Positions 1 to 32,509 of a stretch of 48,239 bases of DNA are shown in pieces. Source of the stretch: an uncultured Eudoraea sp. (lineage in GTDB: Bacteria; Bacteroidota; Bacteroidia; Flavobacteriales; Flavobacteriaceae); the NCBI GenBank assembly GCA_965368835.1, contig CBDUON010000001.1, positions 1 to 48,239 of the forward strand. The letters are read 5' to 3'. How positions within the stretch are numbered: the first letter of the stretch is position 1; each line of letters starts with the position of its first letter. The translations under genes and the position numbers were made by a program. The notes under the pieces are model-generated. The model was not told the origin of the DNA, searched no databases, and saw only the letters and a program-made list of their open reading frames with translations.

Positions 1-167
1 TCGATGTTTTTGATATCTATGGGGTTTTATACCTTACCCAAACATTAGACGGACGTAATGGGCCTACTACACACGAAATAAACATGAGTGCGTGTTTAAA
101 TGGCATATATTTTATCCGTTGTACTTCAGGTGATGATGTTCAGGTATATAGTGTGGTAAAAGAGTAA
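1..167 (+). CDS. 3' end of a protein with a T9SS type A C-terminal sorting domain (partial, begins before the window)
   Basis: Frame from nt 3 reads DVFDIYGVLYLTQTLDGRNGPTTHEINMSACLNGIYFIRCTSGDDVQVYSVVKE* (TAA 165-167). This matches the T9SS CTD pattern (xxDIxG...INxSxLxxGIYFIR...VVKE). Not in the ORF track. Confidence 0.75.
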   Translation, partial: DVFDIYGVLYLTQTLDGRNGPTTHEINMSACLNGIYFIRCTSGDDVQVYSVVKE

Positions 168-183
168 ATAAATTAGAAGGCCT

Positions 184-2175
184 ATGATCTTACTAAAAAA
201 GAACACCTACCTGGTGGGGGTATTTCTGGCGCTATTGGGGCTGGCTTCCTCCTCCTTATACGGACAGACTACTGAGATAGACAGTCTTAAAAAGGTGGTT
301 CAAACTGGTAAGCGAGACACGGCGATGGTTAATACATTGATTAACTTGAGTCTTGTAGTGTTAGGCAATGAGGATATAGAAAATTCTCTGGCTTATGCTG
401 AAAAGGCGAATGAACTTGCCAAAGAAATCAACTTTCGTAAGGGTCAGGCGTATGCGCAAAAATATATAGGCTTGGCTCAATATTATCAGGGGAATTACCT
501 TGCTGTAATGGACTATTGGACCAAATCTCTCGAGAGTTTTGAAGCAGTAAAGGATACCACCGGAATGGCCAATATCCTTAATAATTTGGGAGGGGTTTAT
601 TTGAGCCAAGGGGGTAATGATAAGGCACTAGACTATTATTTAAAGTCGCTCTACTATGCGGAAAAAATCAAGGATACTTTAAGGATCACCTCAGTATTAC
701 CTAACATTGGTGCTGTATATGGCGACATGAAGGATTACGAGAAAGCCCTTGCCTATTTTAAGCAGTTAGAGGCATATTTGCCCAGCATAGCGGATCCACA
801 GATCACCACGTATTATTTAATGGGAATTGGGGAAATCTATAATAAAATGGAGGATTATGAAAGTGCGTTAGACTCTTATCATAAAGCATTGCCTCTTAGT
901 GAGAATACGGGAGATTATTCCCACGTTCTAAAAGAACTAGGTACCATAGAGTTTAAAATTGGGAATGTAGAAAAGGCTATTGAGCATTTAAACCTGTCAT
1001 ATGAAACTGCCAAAGAGAAAAATCAGCAATTGGAGACACTAAATGCCCTAATTGGTCTTGGAAACATTTATCAGGAAACGAATTACCAGAAAGCAGTAGC
1101 TTATTACAATGAAGCAGAGACTTTGGCCCTGGAATTGGAAACGAATAAAGGGTTAAGAGATATTTATGAAGGTTTGTCCAAAACAAATGCCTCAGTTGGG
1201 AATTATGACAAGGCATATACCTACCAGACCTTATATCTGGCCAGAAAAGATTCTATCTATAATCTTGAGACTGATGACACCATCCGAGGCTTGCAATTCG
1301 ATTTTGAAAATCAAAAGAAAGAGGATGAAATAGGATTGTTAGAGCAGCAAGCTCAAATATCTGAACTAACTGAAAAAAGACAGAAGTATGCACTATACGC
1401 TACCATATCGTTTCTTGTTTTGGTTTTTGTACTCGCTGTAGGTTCCTATAAACGGTATAGGTATGTGAAGAAAACCAACAAGATCATAGAAGTAGAGAAG
1501 GAAAGGTCCGAAAAATTACTGTTAAACATTCTCCCGGAGGAAACGGCCCTCGAATTAAAAGAACACGGTAAGGTTGCCGCGAAGAAGTTTGAATCGGCTA
1601 CCATTCTGTTCTCAGATTTTAAAGGTTTTACCAGCTATGCCCAAAACCTGTCTCCGGAAGACCTGGTTAGAAGTGTGGATTACTACTTCTCCAAATTCGA
1701 CCAGATCATGGATAAATACGATCTGGAAAAAATAAAGACTGTTGGGGATGCCTATATGTGTGCCGGGGGCTTACCGTTCCCAACCACAGACCATCCATTA
1801 AAAATGGTGGAGGCTGCTTTTGAAATAGCCCAGGTGATGGAAGATATGAAGACCAACCCTGAACCGGGTATTGTTTCCTTCGATGTGCGGATAGGGATCA
1901 ATACAGGGCCTGTAGTGGCCGGTGTAGTGGGCCTAAATAAGTTTGCCTACGATATCTGGGGAGATACTGTAAATGTTGCTTCCCGTATGGAAACCATGTC
2001 CGAACCGGGCCGTATCAATATCTCCGAGAATACCTATCAGCTCATTAAGGATGTATATGAATGTGAATTCAGAGGGAAGGTGGATGTGAAAAATAAGGGC
2101 AAGATGGAGATGTATTTTGTGAATGCAAGAAAAATTATTAGACACACCAAATCGAAGGAAGAAGTAAATGTGTAA
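184..2175 (+). CDS. Membrane-anchored class III adenylate/guanylate cyclase with N-terminal periplasmic TPR array
   Basis: Signal peptide, TPR repeats (LNNLGGVY...ALDYY), TM helix YALYATISFLVLVFVLAVGSY, S-helix ERSEKLLLNILP. Catalytic motifs FSDFKGFT, KIKTVGDAYM, RIGINTG, YDIWGDTVNVASRME. Confidence 0.93.
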   Translation: MILLKKNTYLVGVFLALLGLASSSLYGQTTEIDSLKKVVQTGKRDTAMVNTLINLSLVVLGNEDIENSLAYAEKANELAKEINFRKGQAYAQKYIGLAQYYQGNYLAVMDYWTKSLESFEAVKDTTGMANILNNLGGVYLSQGGNDKALDYYLKSLYYAEKIKDTLRITSVLPNIGAVYGDMKDYEKALAYFKQLEAYLPSIADPQITTYYLMGIGEIYNKMEDYESALDSYHKALPLSENTGDYSHVLKELGTIEFKIGNVEKAIEHLNLSYETAKEKNQQLETLNALIGLGNIYQETNYQKAVAYYNEAETLALELETNKGLRDIYEGLSKTNASVGNYDKAYTYQTLYLARKDSIYNLETDDTIRGLQFDFENQKKEDEIGLLEQQAQISELTEKRQKYALYATISFLVLVFVLAVGSYKRYRYVKKTNKIIEVEKERSEKLLLNILPEETALELKEHGKVAAKKFESATILFSDFKGFTSYAQNLSPEDLVRSVDYYFSKFDQIMDKYDLEKIKTVGDAYMCAGGLPFPTTDHPLKMVEAAFEIAQVMEDMKTNPEPGIVSFDVRIGINTGPVVAGVVGLNKFAYDIWGDTVNVASRMETMSEPGRINISENTYQLIKDVYECEFRGKVDVKNKGKMEMYFVNARKIIRHTKSKEEVNV

Positions 2176-2194
2176 CTTAGAGCTATCTAAGTAG

Positions 2195-2719
2195 ATGAAA
2201 TTAATGAAGCATCAGGATCCAAATAATTATTGGGAACAGCTAGAACGCCTCGAAAAATTAATACGGGCCTCTGAATTAAAGGCTGGGGTACTATTCTCTT
2301 TTCACAGTCTTATTTTAGGATTGTTTGCGGAGCGGCTCGACTTTTTTGAGCCTATGTTCCGGGGCAATATATGGTTTACCATTTTTTTTATTCTTTGGTT
2401 ACTATGTGTGTTGGTCTCTGTTTATTATTGTTTTAAATGCTTTATGCCACGTATGGAAATGAAGTACCAAGCCAATGTATTCTTTTTTAGAGATGCTGTA
2501 AAAGCATTTGGCAACACTGAAGAATTTACCAAAAGGATCATTGAAATATGTAATAGCGAGGAAGAATTATACATCCAGTTAGCTGAACAGATTCACGCAG
2601 AGAGTAAGATCATTGAAGAAAAATTTGGCAGTGTACAAAAGTCACTCCGATTTTTTGCCCTGAGCTTTGTCTTTGCCATTGTAAGCCTTGTCATAGGCAT
2701 AATCCAAATTGCTACCTAA
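2195..2719 (+). CDS. Pycsar-type transmembrane effector (PycTM/DUF5706-like)
   Basis: 174 aa with about 3 hydrophobic segments. Motifs ASELKAGVLF (ADxKA-like), NVFFFRD and LAEQIHAESKIIEEKF followed by a C-terminal TM, as in DUF5706/PycTM. Confidence 0.75.
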   Translation: MKLMKHQDPNNYWEQLERLEKLIRASELKAGVLFSFHSLILGLFAERLDFFEPMFRGNIWFTIFFILWLLCVLVSVYYCFKCFMPRMEMKYQANVFFFRDAVKAFGNTEEFTKRIIEICNSEEELYIQLAEQIHAESKIIEEKFGSVQKSLRFFALSFVFAIVSLVIGIIQIAT

Positions 2720-2733
2720 AAATCGTCACATCA

Positions 2734-3315
2734 ATGACGGGATATTTTAAATTAAGGCGAAGGGCCCTAAACCTGCTTCGCACAGAACTAACGGATGAGC
2801 TCCGTTATCATGGTATTGATCATACTCTGGAGGTTCTTAAGGTATGCAATGAGTATATCCGTCGCGAAAAAATAAGTAGTGATGAAGCCCAGCTACTTAG
2901 GACAGGAGCTATTTGCCACGATCTTGGCTTTACGGTCTCATATTATGACCATGAAGAACACTCTGTTGTCATTGCCATAGATCTGATGAGGAAATACAAT
3001 TATTCTGAGAAAAATATAAAAGCTGTCATAGGGCTTATCAATGCAACCAAAGTACCTCAATCACCCAAAAATCATTTGGAAAAGATCCTTTGCGATGCCG
3101 ACCTCGATTATCTGGGCAGAAAGGATTACAAAAAGATAAGCGACCTGTTATTTCAGGAATTAAATGCTTTTGGGCAGATATCTTCCAAAAAAGCGTGGAG
3201 AGAAATGCAAATCAACTTTCTTGAGAATCACGAATACCATACCCCATTTGCCAGGAAGAACAGGCAACCAGGCAAAGAAAGACGACTGCGCGAGTTAAAG
3301 GAGCAAAAAAATTGA
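2734..3315 (+). CDS. HD-domain metal-dependent phosphohydrolase
   Basis: YHGIDHTLEV, AICHDLGF, HEEHS, LCDADLDYLG motifs (H...HD...D). Confidence 0.88.
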   Translation: MTGYFKLRRRALNLLRTELTDELRYHGIDHTLEVLKVCNEYIRREKISSDEAQLLRTGAICHDLGFTVSYYDHEEHSVVIAIDLMRKYNYSEKNIKAVIGLINATKVPQSPKNHLEKILCDADLDYLGRKDYKKISDLLFQELNAFGQISSKKAWREMQINFLENHEYHTPFARKNRQPGKERRLRELKEQKN

Positions 3316-5801: not shown

Positions 5802-6377
5802 TTAATTTAATATGATTCGTTGTATCTCATTTTCTGATACATTGAGCGCGCGCATCACGGCGTCTATGTTGGAGGTGTCTAACTTCCCTGTAGTGCCATA
5901 TTCTGCAGGTACGATGGCGATCCTGAATACCTGATCATCTGTATCGCCAGACATCAGCGTAGCCAGATCGAAATCCGATTCAAGAAAAACACTTACATCA
6001 AAAAATGTGTGATCAAAATTATATTGTAGTATCCCCTGATCTAGTAATCTTGTCTGAGGAAGTAGTCGCCAGATATCCACAAGTTCTCCATTTCCATCTT
6101 CTGTCTGATCCCATAGGATATAGACAAAAACCAGATCGGATTCAAAAACCTCTGTGGTGTTAGGGAATTCGTAGAATAGGGTATACTCATTTGCAGGAGT
6201 AAAACTTCCTTCAATTTCAAAGACCGTACCCAGGATGTTAATTCCGTCCTGCCCGTCTAAACCATCCAGTCCATCAAATCCGTCATATCCGGGAGGGCCG
6301 GGAGGGCCTGCTGGGCCTTCACAAGAGATCATAAACAGTACGGCGATTGCGCTAAAAAAGAGTGACATTTTTTTCAT
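5802..6377 (-). CDS. Collagen-like (Gly-X-Y) lipoprotein
   Basis: Likely start MKKMSLFF at 6377; lipobox MISC followed by GPAGPPGPPGYDGFDGLDGLDGQDG. Confidence 0.8.
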   Translation of the reverse strand: MKKMSLFFSAIAVLFMISCEGPAGPPGPPGYDGFDGLDGLDGQDGINILGTVFEIEGSFTPANEYTLFYEFPNTTEVFESDLVFVYILWDQTEDGNGELVDIWRLLPQTRLLDQGILQYNFDHTFFDVSVFLESDFDLATLMSGDTDDQVFRIAIVPAEYGTTGKLDTSNIDAVMRALNVSENEIQRIILN

Positions 6378-6457
6378 AATTGATACCTTTTTATAGTTTC
6401 TGAACAAGAATATTCAGATGGGGGTTTGTTTTGATTATTAATATGTTTTCTATAGTT

Positions 6458-29900: not shown

Positions 29901-30389
29901 ATGAAACAGCTGATATTGGTACGGCATGGTAAGTCTTCCTGGGAGTATGGGGTTGAGGACAGGGATCGTCCTTTAAAGGAGATAGGGATACAAGACGCCC
30001 ATAGAGTATCTCATCATTTTGGCACAGCCAAGGTTAAGATCAATGCGGTTTATTCTAGTCCGGCCATTAGAGCACTGCATACCTGTGTTGTATTTTTAAG
30101 GAATCTTAAGATATCATATTCAGATTTTACTCTTACCAATGACCTGTATGATTTTTCCGGGGAAGATGTTATGGATTTTGTAAGAAATCTATCAGATTCA
30201 CAACAAATAGTGATGATATTTGGGCATAATCATGCCTTCACAGAAGTAGCAAATATGTGGGGTGATGTTTATATAGATAATGTACCCACAACAGGATTGG
30301 TTCATCTCTCGTTCAACGTCTCGAGTTGGAAGGATGTGAAAAAAGGAAAAACCGAAAAGGTGATTATTCCCAAAGAATTACGGATATGA
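29901..30389 (+). CDS. SixA-type histidine phosphatase
   Basis: LVRHGKS, SSPAIRA, FGHN motifs. Confidence 0.88.
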   Translation: MKQLILVRHGKSSWEYGVEDRDRPLKEIGIQDAHRVSHHFGTAKVKINAVYSSPAIRALHTCVVFLRNLKISYSDFTLTNDLYDFSGEDVMDFVRNLSDSQQIVMIFGHNHAFTEVANMWGDVYIDNVPTTGLVHLSFNVSSWKDVKKGKTEKVIIPKELRI

Positions 30390-32509
30390 TCAAAACAAAG
30401 AATCAGTATATCAATAGAGAAATCAGCTGGTTAAAATTTAATGACCGGGTGTTACAGGAAAGTGCTGATCAACGTGTTCCCCTGATTGAGCGACTTAGAT
30501 TTCTTGGGATATTCTCTAATAACCTGGATGAATTCTTTAAGGTTCGGTACGCAACCGTGAAACGGATAGTGGAGGCAGGTAAATCTGGCAAAAGTGTTTT
30601 GGGAGGTGAAATTGCTAAAGACTTATTGGAGGAGATCACAAAAATAGTAATAGAGCAACAAACCCGCAGTTTAGAGATACATAAGGATATAGAAAAAGAG
30701 TTGGAGGCTGAAAATATCTTCCTTATAAATGAAGAAGAGGTTACTGAAGAACAGTCTAAATTCTTAAAAAATTATTTTTTAGAAAAGGTGAGTCCGCAGT
30801 TAATGACCATCATTCTAAATGATCTCACGGAGTTTCCGATGCTTAAGGACTCTGCCGCTTATTTGGCCATAAAAATGGTCCTGAAAAGCGAAGATGCCAA
30901 AAAGCCTGCAGATCATAACAAAGAAAAGAGTTATGCCCTTATAGAAATCCCCAAAGGTATTGACAGATTTGTAGTACTTCCCAGGGAAGGAGAAAGGTAC
31001 TATATCATTATTCTGGATGATCTGATCCGATATTGTCTCGACAGTATTTTTTCCATGTTCGATTATACTTCTATTTCGGCACATATGATAAAAATTACCC
31101 GAGATGCCGAATTAGATATTGACAATGATCTTAGTAAGAGCTTTATAGAAAAGATTTCCTCTAGTGTAGATAATAGAAAGATTAGTGATCCGGTTCGTTT
31201 TGTATATGACAAGAGTATTGAGGAAGATACGCTAGCGTTTCTAACTGAAAAAATGGGAATCACTGATACAGATAGTGTTATTCCTGGTGGGCGTTACCAC
31301 AATAGAAGAGATTATATGAGTTTTCCGAGCTTAGGCAAGGAGGAGCTGATGTATCAAAAAATAAATCCCTTGCCCATCAAAGGTGTTGAACCAGAAGGTA
31401 GTTTTTTGGGTCAAATAGCAGAGAAGGATTTTTTACAGTATACACCCTACCATAAATTTTCATACATCATTCGGTTTCTGCGCGAGGCTGCCTTAGATCC
31501 TAAGGTAAAGACCATCAAGATCACAGTGTACCGCCTTGCAGATAATTCACAGGTAATTGCTTCTTTGATCAATGCTGCCAAGAATGGAAAGCAGGTAACC
31601 GTGCAGATTGAATTACGTGCCCGTTTCGATGAAACCGCAAATATTGGGTATGCAGAACAATTACAGGAAGAAGGGGTTAAATTGATTTTTGGTGTCCCGG
31701 GTTTAAAGGTGCACAGCAAGATCTGTCTTATAGAAAGGGAAGAAAATGAAAGGACCAACCGCTATGGATTTATAAGCACAGGGAATTTTAATGAATCCAC
31801 AGGCAGGATCTATACGGATTATACACTATTTACAGCTAATGAAAAGATCCTGAAGGAATTGAACATGGTTTTCGATTTCTTTGAAACTACCTATAAGATC
31901 AACAAATACAAACACCTTATTGTCTCACCACATTATACCAAAAGTGCTTTTAAAAAGCTTATAGATCAGGAGATCGAGAATGTAAAACTGGGGAAAGAGG
32001 CGTATATCAAGATCAAAATGAATAGCCTAACCTCTTATAAAATGGTAGACAAGCTATATGAGGCAAGCAGGGCAGGTGTAAAAATAAAGATGATCGTTAG
32101 GGGTATCTGCTGTCTGATCCCTGGGGTAAAAGGGATGAGCGAAAATATTGAGGCAATCAGTATAGTTGATAAGTTCCTGGAGCATCCTCGTTTATTCATC
32201 TTTGCTAATGCAGGAAACCCCAAGATGTATATTTCTTCTGCAGACTGGATGACCAGGAATATTGAAAATAGGGTAGAAGTAGGATGCCCAATTTACGATG
32301 AGGATATAAAAAATGAACTCATCGACACTTTTGAAATCTCCTGGCGCGATAATGTTAAGGCAAGAAGGTTCAATCAACTTCAGGATAACAGCTACGTAAG
32401 GAATAAAAAGCCGAAGGTGCGCTCACAATTTGCCGTATATGATTACTATCTGGATAAATTAAGAGTTACGAGCAAACCTCCCCATTCTGAAGCCCTTAAA
32501 TATGATTAA
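30386..32509 (+). CDS. ppk1: Polyphosphate kinase 1
   Basis: NREISWLKFN, NLDEFF, ELRARFDE, KVHSK, STGNFN, FLEHPR, SSADWM. Start MIKTK overlaps the sixA stop (ATGA). Confidence 0.96.
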   Translation: MIKTKNQYINREISWLKFNDRVLQESADQRVPLIERLRFLGIFSNNLDEFFKVRYATVKRIVEAGKSGKSVLGGEIAKDLLEEITKIVIEQQTRSLEIHKDIEKELEAENIFLINEEEVTEEQSKFLKNYFLEKVSPQLMTIILNDLTEFPMLKDSAAYLAIKMVLKSEDAKKPADHNKEKSYALIEIPKGIDRFVVLPREGERYYIIILDDLIRYCLDSIFSMFDYTSISAHMIKITRDAELDIDNDLSKSFIEKISSSVDNRKISDPVRFVYDKSIEEDTLAFLTEKMGITDTDSVIPGGRYHNRRDYMSFPSLGKEELMYQKINPLPIKGVEPEGSFLGQIAEKDFLQYTPYHKFSYIIRFLREAALDPKVKTIKITVYRLADNSQVIASLINAAKNGKQVTVQIELRARFDETANIGYAEQLQEEGVKLIFGVPGLKVHSKICLIEREENERTNRYGFISTGNFNESTGRIYTDYTLFTANEKILKELNMVFDFFETTYKINKYKHLIVSPHYTKSAFKKLIDQEIENVKLGKEAYIKIKMNSLTSYKMVDKLYEASRAGVKIKMIVRGICCLIPGVKGMSENIEAISIVDKFLEHPRLFIFANAGNPKMYISSADWMTRNIENRVEVGCPIYDEDIKNELIDTFEISWRDNVKARRFNQLQDNSYVRNKKPKVRSQFAVYDYYLDKLRVTSKPPHSEALKYD

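Follow-up and report, generated by a model that had tools for sequence, protein, structure and literature searches.

A conserved receptor-cyclase, PycTM-family and HD gene module in Eudoraea and its relatives: a candidate cyclic-nucleotide circuit of the cell envelope

The pairing of a nucleotide cyclase with a PycTM-family membrane protein is already known from the anti-phage systems Pycsar and Pucsar. The locus at positions 184–3315 of a 48,239-nucleotide stretch of DNA from an uncultured Eudoraea sp. of the Flavobacteriaceae (GenBank contig CBDUON010000001.1, positions 1 to 48,239, forward strand; this whole stretch is called the window) raises the question of what such a pair does when the cyclase is a receptor and a gene for an HD-superfamily phosphohydrolase follows. 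The original prediction for this locus had proposed a Pycsar-type trio, with a sensor-equipped cyclase, a membrane effector and an HD eraser, for either defence or envelope signalling. The reading that we favour, at a probability of roughly 0.5, is that a secreted subtilase, the receptor cyclase, the PycTM-family protein and the HD protein form a conserved module, in which cyclic AMP (cAMP) would be made by the cyclase, sensed by the membrane output and hydrolysed by the HD protein. This module likely serves envelope physiology rather than phage defence.

In the list of open reading frames (ORFs), the three genes are co-oriented on the + strand at 184–2175 (663 aa), 2195–2719 (174 aa) and 2734–3315 (193 aa), with intergenic gaps of 19 bp (2176–2194) between the cyclase and PycTM-like genes and of 14 bp (2720–2733) between the PycTM-like and HD genes. 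These coordinates agree exactly with those of the original prediction, and its assignment of the products (a cyclase with signal peptide, TPR array and transmembrane helix, a PycTM/DUF5706-like protein and an HD protein) was borne out by the profile searches and hydropathy analysis detailed below. Positions 3–167 hold the tail of a fourth co-oriented gene, of the subtilase-like kind, which stops 16 bp before the cyclase start and is cut at the contig end, the window starting at contig base 1. The features of the locus are as follows.

3–167 (+): C-terminal tail, with a sorting domain of the type IX secretion system (T9SS), of a giant secreted subtilase-like gene; open-ended ORF, Por_Secre_tail match
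184–2175 (+): receptor-type class III nucleotide cyclase, 663 aa (Pfam, structure alignments, hydropathy)
184–264 (+): predicted signal-peptide-like N-terminus of the cyclase, residues 1–27 (hydropathy)
265–1389 (+): TPR sensor region of the cyclase, residues 28–402, predicted extracytoplasmic (TPR Pfam matches, topology)
1390–1446 (+): single transmembrane helix of the cyclase, residues 403–421 (Kyte-Doolittle)
1576–2124 (+): class III cyclase catalytic domain, residues 465–647, hexad D-K-D-D-N-R (Guanylate_cyc)
2195–2719 (+): PycTM-family (PF18967, 'pJV1-SpdB3 3TM') membrane protein, 174 aa (Pfam, PADLOC)
2734–3315 (+): soluble HD-superfamily phosphohydrolase of a cyclase-associated subfamily, 193 aa, with a predicted phosphodiesterase-like fold (Pfam, AlphaFold2 model)

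With regard to the cyclase, the Pfam profile Guanylate_cyc matched residues 465–647 at E 2.7e-56 and 190.5 bits, against a cut-off of 21.9, and several TPR families also matched the protein, TPR_12 at E 1.5e-31. Hydropathy analysis revealed a signal-like hydrophobic segment at residues 9–27, preceded by KK, and a transmembrane helix at residues 403–421 (Kyte-Doolittle peak of 2.29) with six K/R in the next 15 residues. Because of this signal-like N-terminus and of a single helix followed by a K/R-rich stretch, the TPR region (residues 28–402) is predicted to be extracytoplasmic and the cyclase domain cytoplasmic, in keeping with the periplasm-facing sensor that had been proposed.

A Lys/Asp pair specifies adenine in class III cyclases, and the six catalytic positions of the family are two metal-binding Asp, a substrate-specifying Lys and Asp, and a transition-state Asn and Arg. 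When aligned with the C1 and C2 domains of adenylate cyclase (AC) 9, the window cyclase presented the full hexad D-K-D-D-N-R, comprising both metal-binding Asp of the solved adenylate cyclases, the Lys/Asp pair, and the Asn and Arg; its Lys (in EKIKTVGDAYM) and Asp (in YDIWGDTVNVASRM) align with the C2-domain specificity residues of the AC structures. The same hexad was found in every full-length cyclase adjoining a window-type PycTM gene in an alignment of 66 cyclase domains from the fetched loci. The closest solved structures to the catalytic domain were AC9 and AC5 (E ~1e-65), together with mycobacterial adenylate cyclases (~1e-50). The PADLOC models of the Pycsar cyclase PycC matched only weakly (best 52.1 bits, E 1.3e-14, about half of the model covered), and Pycsar cyclases carry other base-selecting residue sets, as far as the available part of PMC11224242 describes them. 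Based on these adenylate-type residues, on adenylate cyclases being the nearest solved relatives and on the weak PycC matches, the window cyclase is predicted to be of the adenylate type, with cAMP rather than cCMP or cUMP as its product. This genome holds five cyclase-domain matches in 2.6 Mb, the four further ones being weaker.

The 174-aa product of the second gene matched the PycTM family PF18967 at E 3.3e-12 and 47.2 bits (cut-off 27.2), and the PADLOC PycTM model PDLC02364 at E 6.9e-27 and 92.8 bits over nearly its full length; a PF18967 gene 19 bp from a cyclase gene is also the arrangement expected of a Pycsar effector. Its AlphaFold2 model is all-helical, with a mean predicted local distance difference test score (pLDDT) of 89.4 and long helices at residues 9–46, 59–83 and 122–173. 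Hydrophobic segments were detected at 59–77 and 154–172, and a weaker first one at about 30–47 was noted by eye only; the protein thus combines a three-helix membrane topology with an above-cut-off family match. Its relatives, of which 554 were found, bear names such as Muriicola, Eudoraea and Winogradskyella, as expected for a marine member of the Flavobacteriaceae. In an alignment of 34 sequences, 25 columns were invariant, and the cytosolic N-terminal helix and the loop were highly conserved. A Foldseek comparison of the model with the Protein Data Bank (PDB) yielded no match (best E 0.58), and neither did a sequence search of solved structures return a meaningful one. A screen of 1,196 candidates brought up no longer or fused form of the window-type protein, a negative of little weight. 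As to what the family can do in membranes, the available part of PMC11224242 describes PycTM of Pycsar as a membrane-disrupting pore, and the main text of the preprint 10.64898/2026.08.12.744502 describes the family, in Pucsar, as a hexameric cylinder with a central channel.

The third gene encodes a protein that matched HD (PF01966) at E 2.5e-7 and 31.4 bits, against a cut-off of 22, and that lacks any hydrophobic segment, as would a soluble enzyme. The H...HD...D motif (H30, H62-D63, D121) is invariant in 61 HD sequences; H26, H30, H62, D63, E74, D121, D123 and H166 are all invariant in these 61 standalone members. The AlphaFold2 model (pLDDT 97.9) superposes on class I phosphodiesterases (PDEs) of cyclic nucleoside monophosphates (cNMPs), a comparison of a predicted structure. 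In Foldseek, E-values were marginal throughout, with an uncharacterised HD hydrolase ranked first, followed by many class I PDEs, entries of which are very numerous in the PDB, and by YpgQ-type enzymes. The PDEase_I profile (PF00233) remained below its cut-off of 24.8 for the window protein (13.5 bits, E 0.059); a sequence search of solved structures gave no meaningful match (best relevant entry 2pq7, E 0.44), and clusters retrieved from the ESM Atlas were named 'HD domain-containing protein' only. The subfamily is large, with 3,346 representatives at E ≤0.001. Because of its predicted fold and of the fusion of its relatives to cyclases, described below, the HD protein is likely a cNMP phosphodiesterase, a prediction that fits the eraser role first assigned to it.

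Another substrate would change this picture. The HD protein might be an enzymatic output that acts on NTPs or dNTPs, (p)ppGpp, polyphosphate or 2',3'-cyclic nucleotides, or a non-hydrolysing sensor controlled by the cyclase product. Sub-threshold matches of the 61 HD members to Ppx-GppA domain III (29/61) and HD-CE (41/61), at least as frequent as those to PDEase_I, would fit such a role, as would the YpgQ-type NTP pyrophosphohydrolases and uncharacterised HD hydrolases also listed by Foldseek. It is opposed by the C-terminal fusion of this HD domain to many kinds of cyclase, which is a classic writer-eraser layout, and by the position of the polyphosphate kinase gene ppk, which lies in the window 27 kb away (30326–32506) and is unlinked to the module. 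We regard this explanation as improbable, and the least likely of those considered here.

The fusions themselves tie the HD protein to both of its partners. Firstly, the window HD protein is 37% identical (E 2e-27, residues 11–181) to the HD half of an HD-PycTM fusion, encoded by ORFs of 400–446 aa in which a Lys-rich linker joins an N-terminal HD domain to a PycTM domain at the C-terminus, the latter being only 20% identical to the window PycTM-like protein. PF18967 was found above cut-off in 234 of 301 Flavobacteriaceae genomes, a set with one genome per genus, and among the matches listed approximately 147 of 150 PF18967 rows fell in ORFs of 395–455 aa; eight ORFs of this class, one of them on contig C39 of this genome, were identified as HD-PycTM by profile search. 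These figures suggest that the HD-PycTM fusion is near-universal in Flavobacteriaceae. A cyclase lay at most 2 kb from the fusion in two of five loci of which at least 5 kb were examined on each side, and usually there was no adjacent cyclase. The copy in this genome (L093:6411–7634, +) is a 407-aa protein (PycTM 1.4e-37, HD 1.5e-8) flanked by a Metallophos protein of 1,239 aa and by a 791-aa product without a Pfam family. In three genera the fusion shares a large neighbour of 545–669 aa with at most weak GAF similarity (L044:2679–4403, −; L045:14–1648, +; L046:2341–4347, −), which looks like a conserved partner of the fusion.

Secondly, 50 longer relatives, 37–46% identical over about 97% of the window HD protein, carry the HD domain at their C-terminus. 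They comprise TPR-cyclase-HD proteins, of which P0121 otherwise mirrors the layout of the window cyclase, beta-propeller-sensor-cyclase-HD proteins of about 1,300 aa and short cyclase-HD proteins; REC-cyclase-HD, kinase-AAA-GAF-cyclase-HD and HD-YitT_membrane-DUF2179 are further architectures of the subfamily. The subfamily was found in 144 of 401 genomes of a sample of the phylum Bacteroidota, and in 20 of 40 fetched HD loci, picked by score and ORF-length class and hence not a random set, a cyclase was fused or within 5 kb; by comparison, all 2.6 Mb of this genome hold only the five cyclase-domain matches noted above. In a quick tree of 61 HD domains, the PycTM-fused HDs stood apart from all others (support 99), and the 18 standalone HDs adjacent to PycTM grouped together (92), with the TPR-HD fusions as their sister group. 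Since fused and PycTM-adjacent HDs fall into separate clades, the HD-PycTM partnership occurs in two HD lineages.

Two further arrangements were observed among these loci. At L084:732–5593, a TPR histidine kinase gene precedes genes for a REC-cyclase (343–346 aa, Lys/Thr pair) and a 486-aa HD-YitT_membrane-DUF2179 protein; HD-YitT also lies beside a REC-cyclase in L083, L078, L085 and L058. The L084 set is a complete-looking pathway of other Bacteroidota that would run parallel to the window module with another membrane output. TPR-HD proteins without a cyclase domain also exist (P0125, 893 aa, and P0158, 890 aa; loci L076, L077 and L081), and a 343-aa neighbour of the REC-cyclase type (D-K-D-T-N-R) adjoins TPR-HD in two of the three loci examined; among such 343-aa cyclases, the REC domain was Pfam-confirmed in L083 only.

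The fusions to membrane proteins also bear on a reading in which the PycTM-like protein is no output at all, and instead an anchor or oligomeric scaffold that holds the HD enzyme near the cyclase in a writer-eraser signalosome, cAMP being read elsewhere, for example by Crp-type regulators. PycTM and YitT/DUF2179, two membrane modules that are unrelated to each other, both occur with the HD domain fused at their N-terminus, as would be expected of parts that mainly localise the enzyme; the HD domain is fused directly to membrane cyclases as well, and two proteins with a cNMP_binding domain are encoded in the genome as possible true receptors. However, the same 3TM family is the sole and product-responsive effector in Pycsar and Pucsar, according to the available parts of PMC11224242 and 10.64898/2026.08.12.744502, and cyclase-PycTM pairs without HD are common (six genera with a two-gene form, and a cyclase upstream in 10 of 12 distant loci), in which an HD anchor would be pointless. 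The conserved N-terminal helix and loop, with the 25 invariant columns in 34 sequences, likewise speak against a scaffold. We consider this reading rather unlikely.

The proposal that the trio forms one cyclic-nucleotide module was examined through its conservation, and it stands: the genes are adjacent in most relatives, and HD domains are fused to cyclases and to PycTM. The order cyclase-PycTM-HD was kept in 11 of 11 close relatives. Across the 301 Flavobacteriaceae genomes, matches to the PycTM-like query were obtained in 82 and could be divided into three tiers. The first, window-type tier (at least 46% identity) comprises 18 genomes including this one; of the 17 other genera, 12 have a TPR-cyclase immediately upstream and seven an HD gene immediately downstream. 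This tier includes a four-gene form and a two-gene form (a TPR-cyclase of 606–622 aa plus PycTM, in six genera), its remainder being the PycTM-like gene alone in two genomes, PycTM-HD only in one and fragmentary loci in two. In the second tier (33–41% identity), a cyclase is directly upstream in 10 of 12 loci, and the four cyclases checked with Pfam were three REC-cyclases (Lys/Thr or Lys/Asp) and one GAF-cyclase (Gln/Ala). The weakest matches, in the third tier, fell in the 400–446-aa ORFs of the HD-PycTM fusions. The other PycTM-linked cyclases checked in the family have input domains of the kinds usual in signal transduction (REC, GAF or TPR). From genus to genus the module stays together and its flanking genes change. 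In one genome (L048:2918–7821), two tandem TPR-cyclases (628 and 625 aa) precede PycTM-HD, and there is no subtilase gene.

This conservation extends to the upstream gene. The tail at 3–167 gave a Por_Secre_tail match of 22.5 bits (E 1.4e-4), below the cut-off of 27, in a truncated domain; it was recovered by tblastn in 7 of 13 related loci, and upstream of the cyclase its counterparts are proteins of 1,302–1,910 aa, with Peptidase_S8, TIG and Por_Secre_tail in the full-length ones. Subtilases of 1,456–1,744 aa with Peptidase_S8, TIG and a T9SS sorting domain lie directly upstream of the cyclase at gaps of 3–16 bp; in four of five other genera with long flanks the subtilase is present and co-oriented, and the remaining flanking genes all differ. 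A subtilase relative was found in all but one of the 11 close relatives, and in that one a contig end cuts the locus. In a genome of the same genus, a 1,910-aa relative, with only the sorting domain confirmed, is located 370 bp upstream of the cyclase, and G205 has all four module parts in a rearranged order. In a metagenome-assembled relative (L004:106–5981), the subtilase gene falls into three ORFs and that of the cyclase into two, which may reflect frameshifts, assembly errors or decay.

Nucleotide comparisons of the window with near-identical genomes showed that the module is a mosaic of alleles. L005 and L002 share only 45–66% identity with the window over positions 1–1400, that is, the subtilase tail and the TPR sensor, and are back at about 80–98% from the transmembrane helix onward. 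L003 and L004 drop to 60–63% only within the HD gene (window positions ~2800–3200). In the comparison of L002 to L005, the flanks of the module stay at about 85–98% identity. Among six relatives, the amino-acid identity of the TPR region was 47–80%; the subtilase and the TPR region share the allele grouping {L003, L007, L008}, in conflict with the grouping {L006, L007, L008} of the transmembrane-catalytic half, PycTM and HD. The extracytoplasmic half, consisting of subtilase and TPR sensor, is exchanged as a block; either the matching of a sensor to its cargo or no more than physical linkage may lie behind this. Co-variation of subtilase and TPR alleles beyond linkage was examined and set aside, with a Spearman coefficient of only 0.30 over 15 pairs, of which the four most similar coincide.

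The genomic surroundings bear on the question of phage defence. Downstream of the module, genes for DUF3817, lipoamide dehydrogenase, MsrB and GH13 proteins were found in 10 of 10 close relatives with a continuing contig, and the rest of the window (40 kb) encodes housekeeping functions: glycan enzymes, Lon, ribosomal protein S1, PyrB, Ppk, DnaX and the glycine-cleavage T protein. No defence or mobile genes were detected in the 48-kb window, nor in the flanks in five other genera, one integrase excepted. Ratios of nonsynonymous to synonymous substitution (dN/dS), calculated against three relatives with unsaturated dS, were 0.06–0.07 for the cyclase, 0.13–0.14 for the PycTM-like gene and 0.09–0.11 for the HD gene, with neighbours at 0.003–0.15; all three genes are under purifying selection. 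A search of 72,556 plasmid and 50,697 phage records with the PycTM-like protein found nothing.

Against this background, we weighed a purine-messenger version of Pycsar/Pucsar-like defence, in which the TPR array would detect phage attack at the envelope, cAMP would open a lethal PycTM pore (abortive infection) and the HD enzyme would keep the basal signal low to prevent self-killing. Such a system would account for the PADLOC PycTM match at E 6.9e-27 over nearly the full length and for the PycC matches at E 1.3e-14; the main text of 10.64898/2026.08.12.744502 describes a purine-based system, Pucsar, with its effector PucTM, and predicts a preference for ATP in one Pycsar-like subclade. The patchy occurrence of the window-type gene (18/301), the relocation of the module between genera, with an integrase near it in L050, and the hypervariable sensor and subtilase alleles would also be at home in a defence system. 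Against it speak the lack of defence and mobile genes in the window and in the flanks in five genera, that one integrase excepted, housekeeping flanks syntenic across ten relatives, dN/dS values of 0.06–0.14 and the absence of plasmid or phage copies. The cyclase, moreover, is a canonical 'physiological' class III enzyme with sensor input domains, and the same preprint's main text reports that immune cyclases form separate, fast-evolving clades. The co-inherited T9SS subtilase has no place in the Pycsar scheme, and PADLOC contains no model matching it. Finally, with four other cyclase matches in the genome, a suicide pore opened by cAMP would be intolerable unless strictly insulated. An anti-phage role for this module is therefore, in our view, unlikely. 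Of the two functions originally offered, envelope signalling is favoured and defence is not, given the core, syntenic context and purifying selection; the label 'Pycsar-type' is not supported, in view of the adenylate hexad, the 190 bits for Guanylate_cyc versus 52 for PycC, the housekeeping synteny, the purifying selection and the near-universal HD-PycTM fusion.

In the envelope circuit that we favour, the TPR array would sense a signal in the periplasm that may be linked to the secreted subtilase, and the cyclase, acting as a dimer, would make cAMP, as predicted from its residues. cAMP would then act, presumably by binding, on the PycTM-family protein, the response of which would be a regulated and non-suicidal membrane change, such as the gating of a channel or pore, in the service of envelope physiology. 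The HD enzyme would hydrolyse the signal, probably while docked at the PycTM-like membrane protein; its action at that protein is proposed because of the HD-PycTM fusions.

Several observations weigh against this circuit. The same protein family acts as an abortive-infection pore in Pycsar and Pucsar (PMC11224242; 10.64898/2026.08.12.744502, as far as these sources were available), NCBI annotates some proteins related to the PycTM-like one as 'Pycsar system effector family protein', and the PADLOC PycTM score is higher for the window protein (92.8 bits) than for the housekeeping HD-PycTM fusion (67.2). The window-type gene is patchy in the family, the module occupies different chromosomal places across genera, with a XerC-like integrase about 250 bp away in L050, and a hypervariable sensor half would also suit a phage sensor. 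HD is absent from the two-gene subtype and hence not obligatory, and an inverted repeat at 2723–2740, terminator-like on both strands (a consensus match only), spans the PycTM stop and the HD start, between the two genes. The PDEase_I profile was found in only 24 of 61 HD members, apparently at sub-threshold level (E ≤0.1, best 1.3e-5), with HD-CE and Ppx-GppA_III as frequent or more so. The subtilase link, finally, could amount to conserved gene order and nothing else.

Elsewhere in the window, the gene at 5802–6407 (−) encodes a protein of 201 aa that contains a short Gly-X-Y run resembling collagen (GPAGPPGPPGYDGFDGLDGLDGQDG) and is kept in 10 of 10 syntenic relatives.

With regard to what this means for annotation, PF18967 is automatically labelled 'Pycsar system effector', and its members in Flavobacteriaceae are mostly wired to signalling cyclases of the TPR, REC and GAF types; the near-universal form has an HD enzyme of its own as fusion partner and is encoded at core loci passed on vertically, where the calls of defence finders are likely misleading. 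If the HD subfamily proves to consist of cAMP phosphodiesterases, compact bacterial PDEs resembling class I would be widespread, of a kind that was not found described in the literature searched. If the PycTM-like protein answers to cAMP, a family of immune pores would gain a physiological function and a possible origin. The T9SS subtilase link and the block-wise allele exchange suggest a sensor-cargo relationship at the Bacteroidota cell surface. Taken further, Bacteroidota PycTM proteins might in general be physiological, cAMP-operated outputs with a miniature class-I-like PDE of their own, the TPR cyclase monitoring the subtilase or its peptides, and they might represent the stock from which Pycsar and Pucsar effectors were later recruited; we offer this as a speculative and, on balance, doubtful extension.

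The searched literature on DUF5706, spdB3 and PF18967 held nothing relevant beyond the Pucsar preprint, and no paper was found on HD-cyclase-TPR systems of Bacteroidetes or describing this module, topics such as Pycsar, YitT/DUF2179 and HD/cAMP-phosphodiesterase included. The preprint, which presents Pucsar as a cyclic-GMP offshoot of Pycsar (August 2026), does not mention phosphodiesterases or Bacteroidota in its main text, leaving aside its supplementary tables, and PMC13069673 mentions PycTM, in the part available, in canonical Pycsar only. Beside the known cyclase-PycTM pair, what is new here is the split PycTM and HD behind a TPR-receptor adenylate-type cyclase, the predicted PDE-like fold, the subtilase partner and the allele mosaic, together with the breadth of cyclase-HD and HD-YitT architectures.

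The module can be compared with several known systems. Class IIIa adenylate cyclases (mammalian AC C1/C2 and the mycobacterial Cya/Rv1625c type) provide the best solved matches and share all six residues, and a homodimeric active site would thus be expected for the window cyclase; they are built on a six-helix transmembrane bundle, whereas the window cyclase is predicted to have one helix and a periplasmic TPR array. The Porphyromonas sensor kinase of the FimS type has a similar layout of TPR and transmembrane helix; its NCBIfam model NF053520 matched at E 3e-23, a score that falls far short of the cut-off. Compared with the class I PDEs PDE10A, PDE7A, PDE2 and PDE9, the window HD protein is 13–18% identical and has about 190 aa, versus a catalytic domain of about 330 aa. 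The HD-PycTM fusions of Bacteroidota combine the same two domain families, but in the window these are encoded by two adjacent genes, PycTM preceding HD, and the fused HDs belong to a clade separate from that of the PycTM-adjacent ones. In the GGDEF-EAL and HD-GYP proteins of cyclic di-GMP signalling, as here, domains for synthesis and (in our case predicted) hydrolysis are fused or side by side and served by varied sensors; the messenger is of another class, here a mononucleotide, and the catalytic domains are unrelated, making the likeness one of analogy only. Closest are Pycsar (PycC and PycTM) and Pucsar (PucC and PucTM), in which, as in the window, a class III-fold cyclase gene stands beside a PF18967-family gene, and the logic by which the cyclase product acts on a membrane protein is likely shared. 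The window departs from them in its cyclase, a receptor of 663 aa that is predicted to have a signal peptide, a TPR region outside the cytoplasm and a transmembrane helix, and that carries the adenylate hexad; in its additional genes, one for a dedicated HD protein and one for a T9SS subtilase inherited along with the module; and in its setting, a syntenic part of the core chromosome with the genes under purifying selection.

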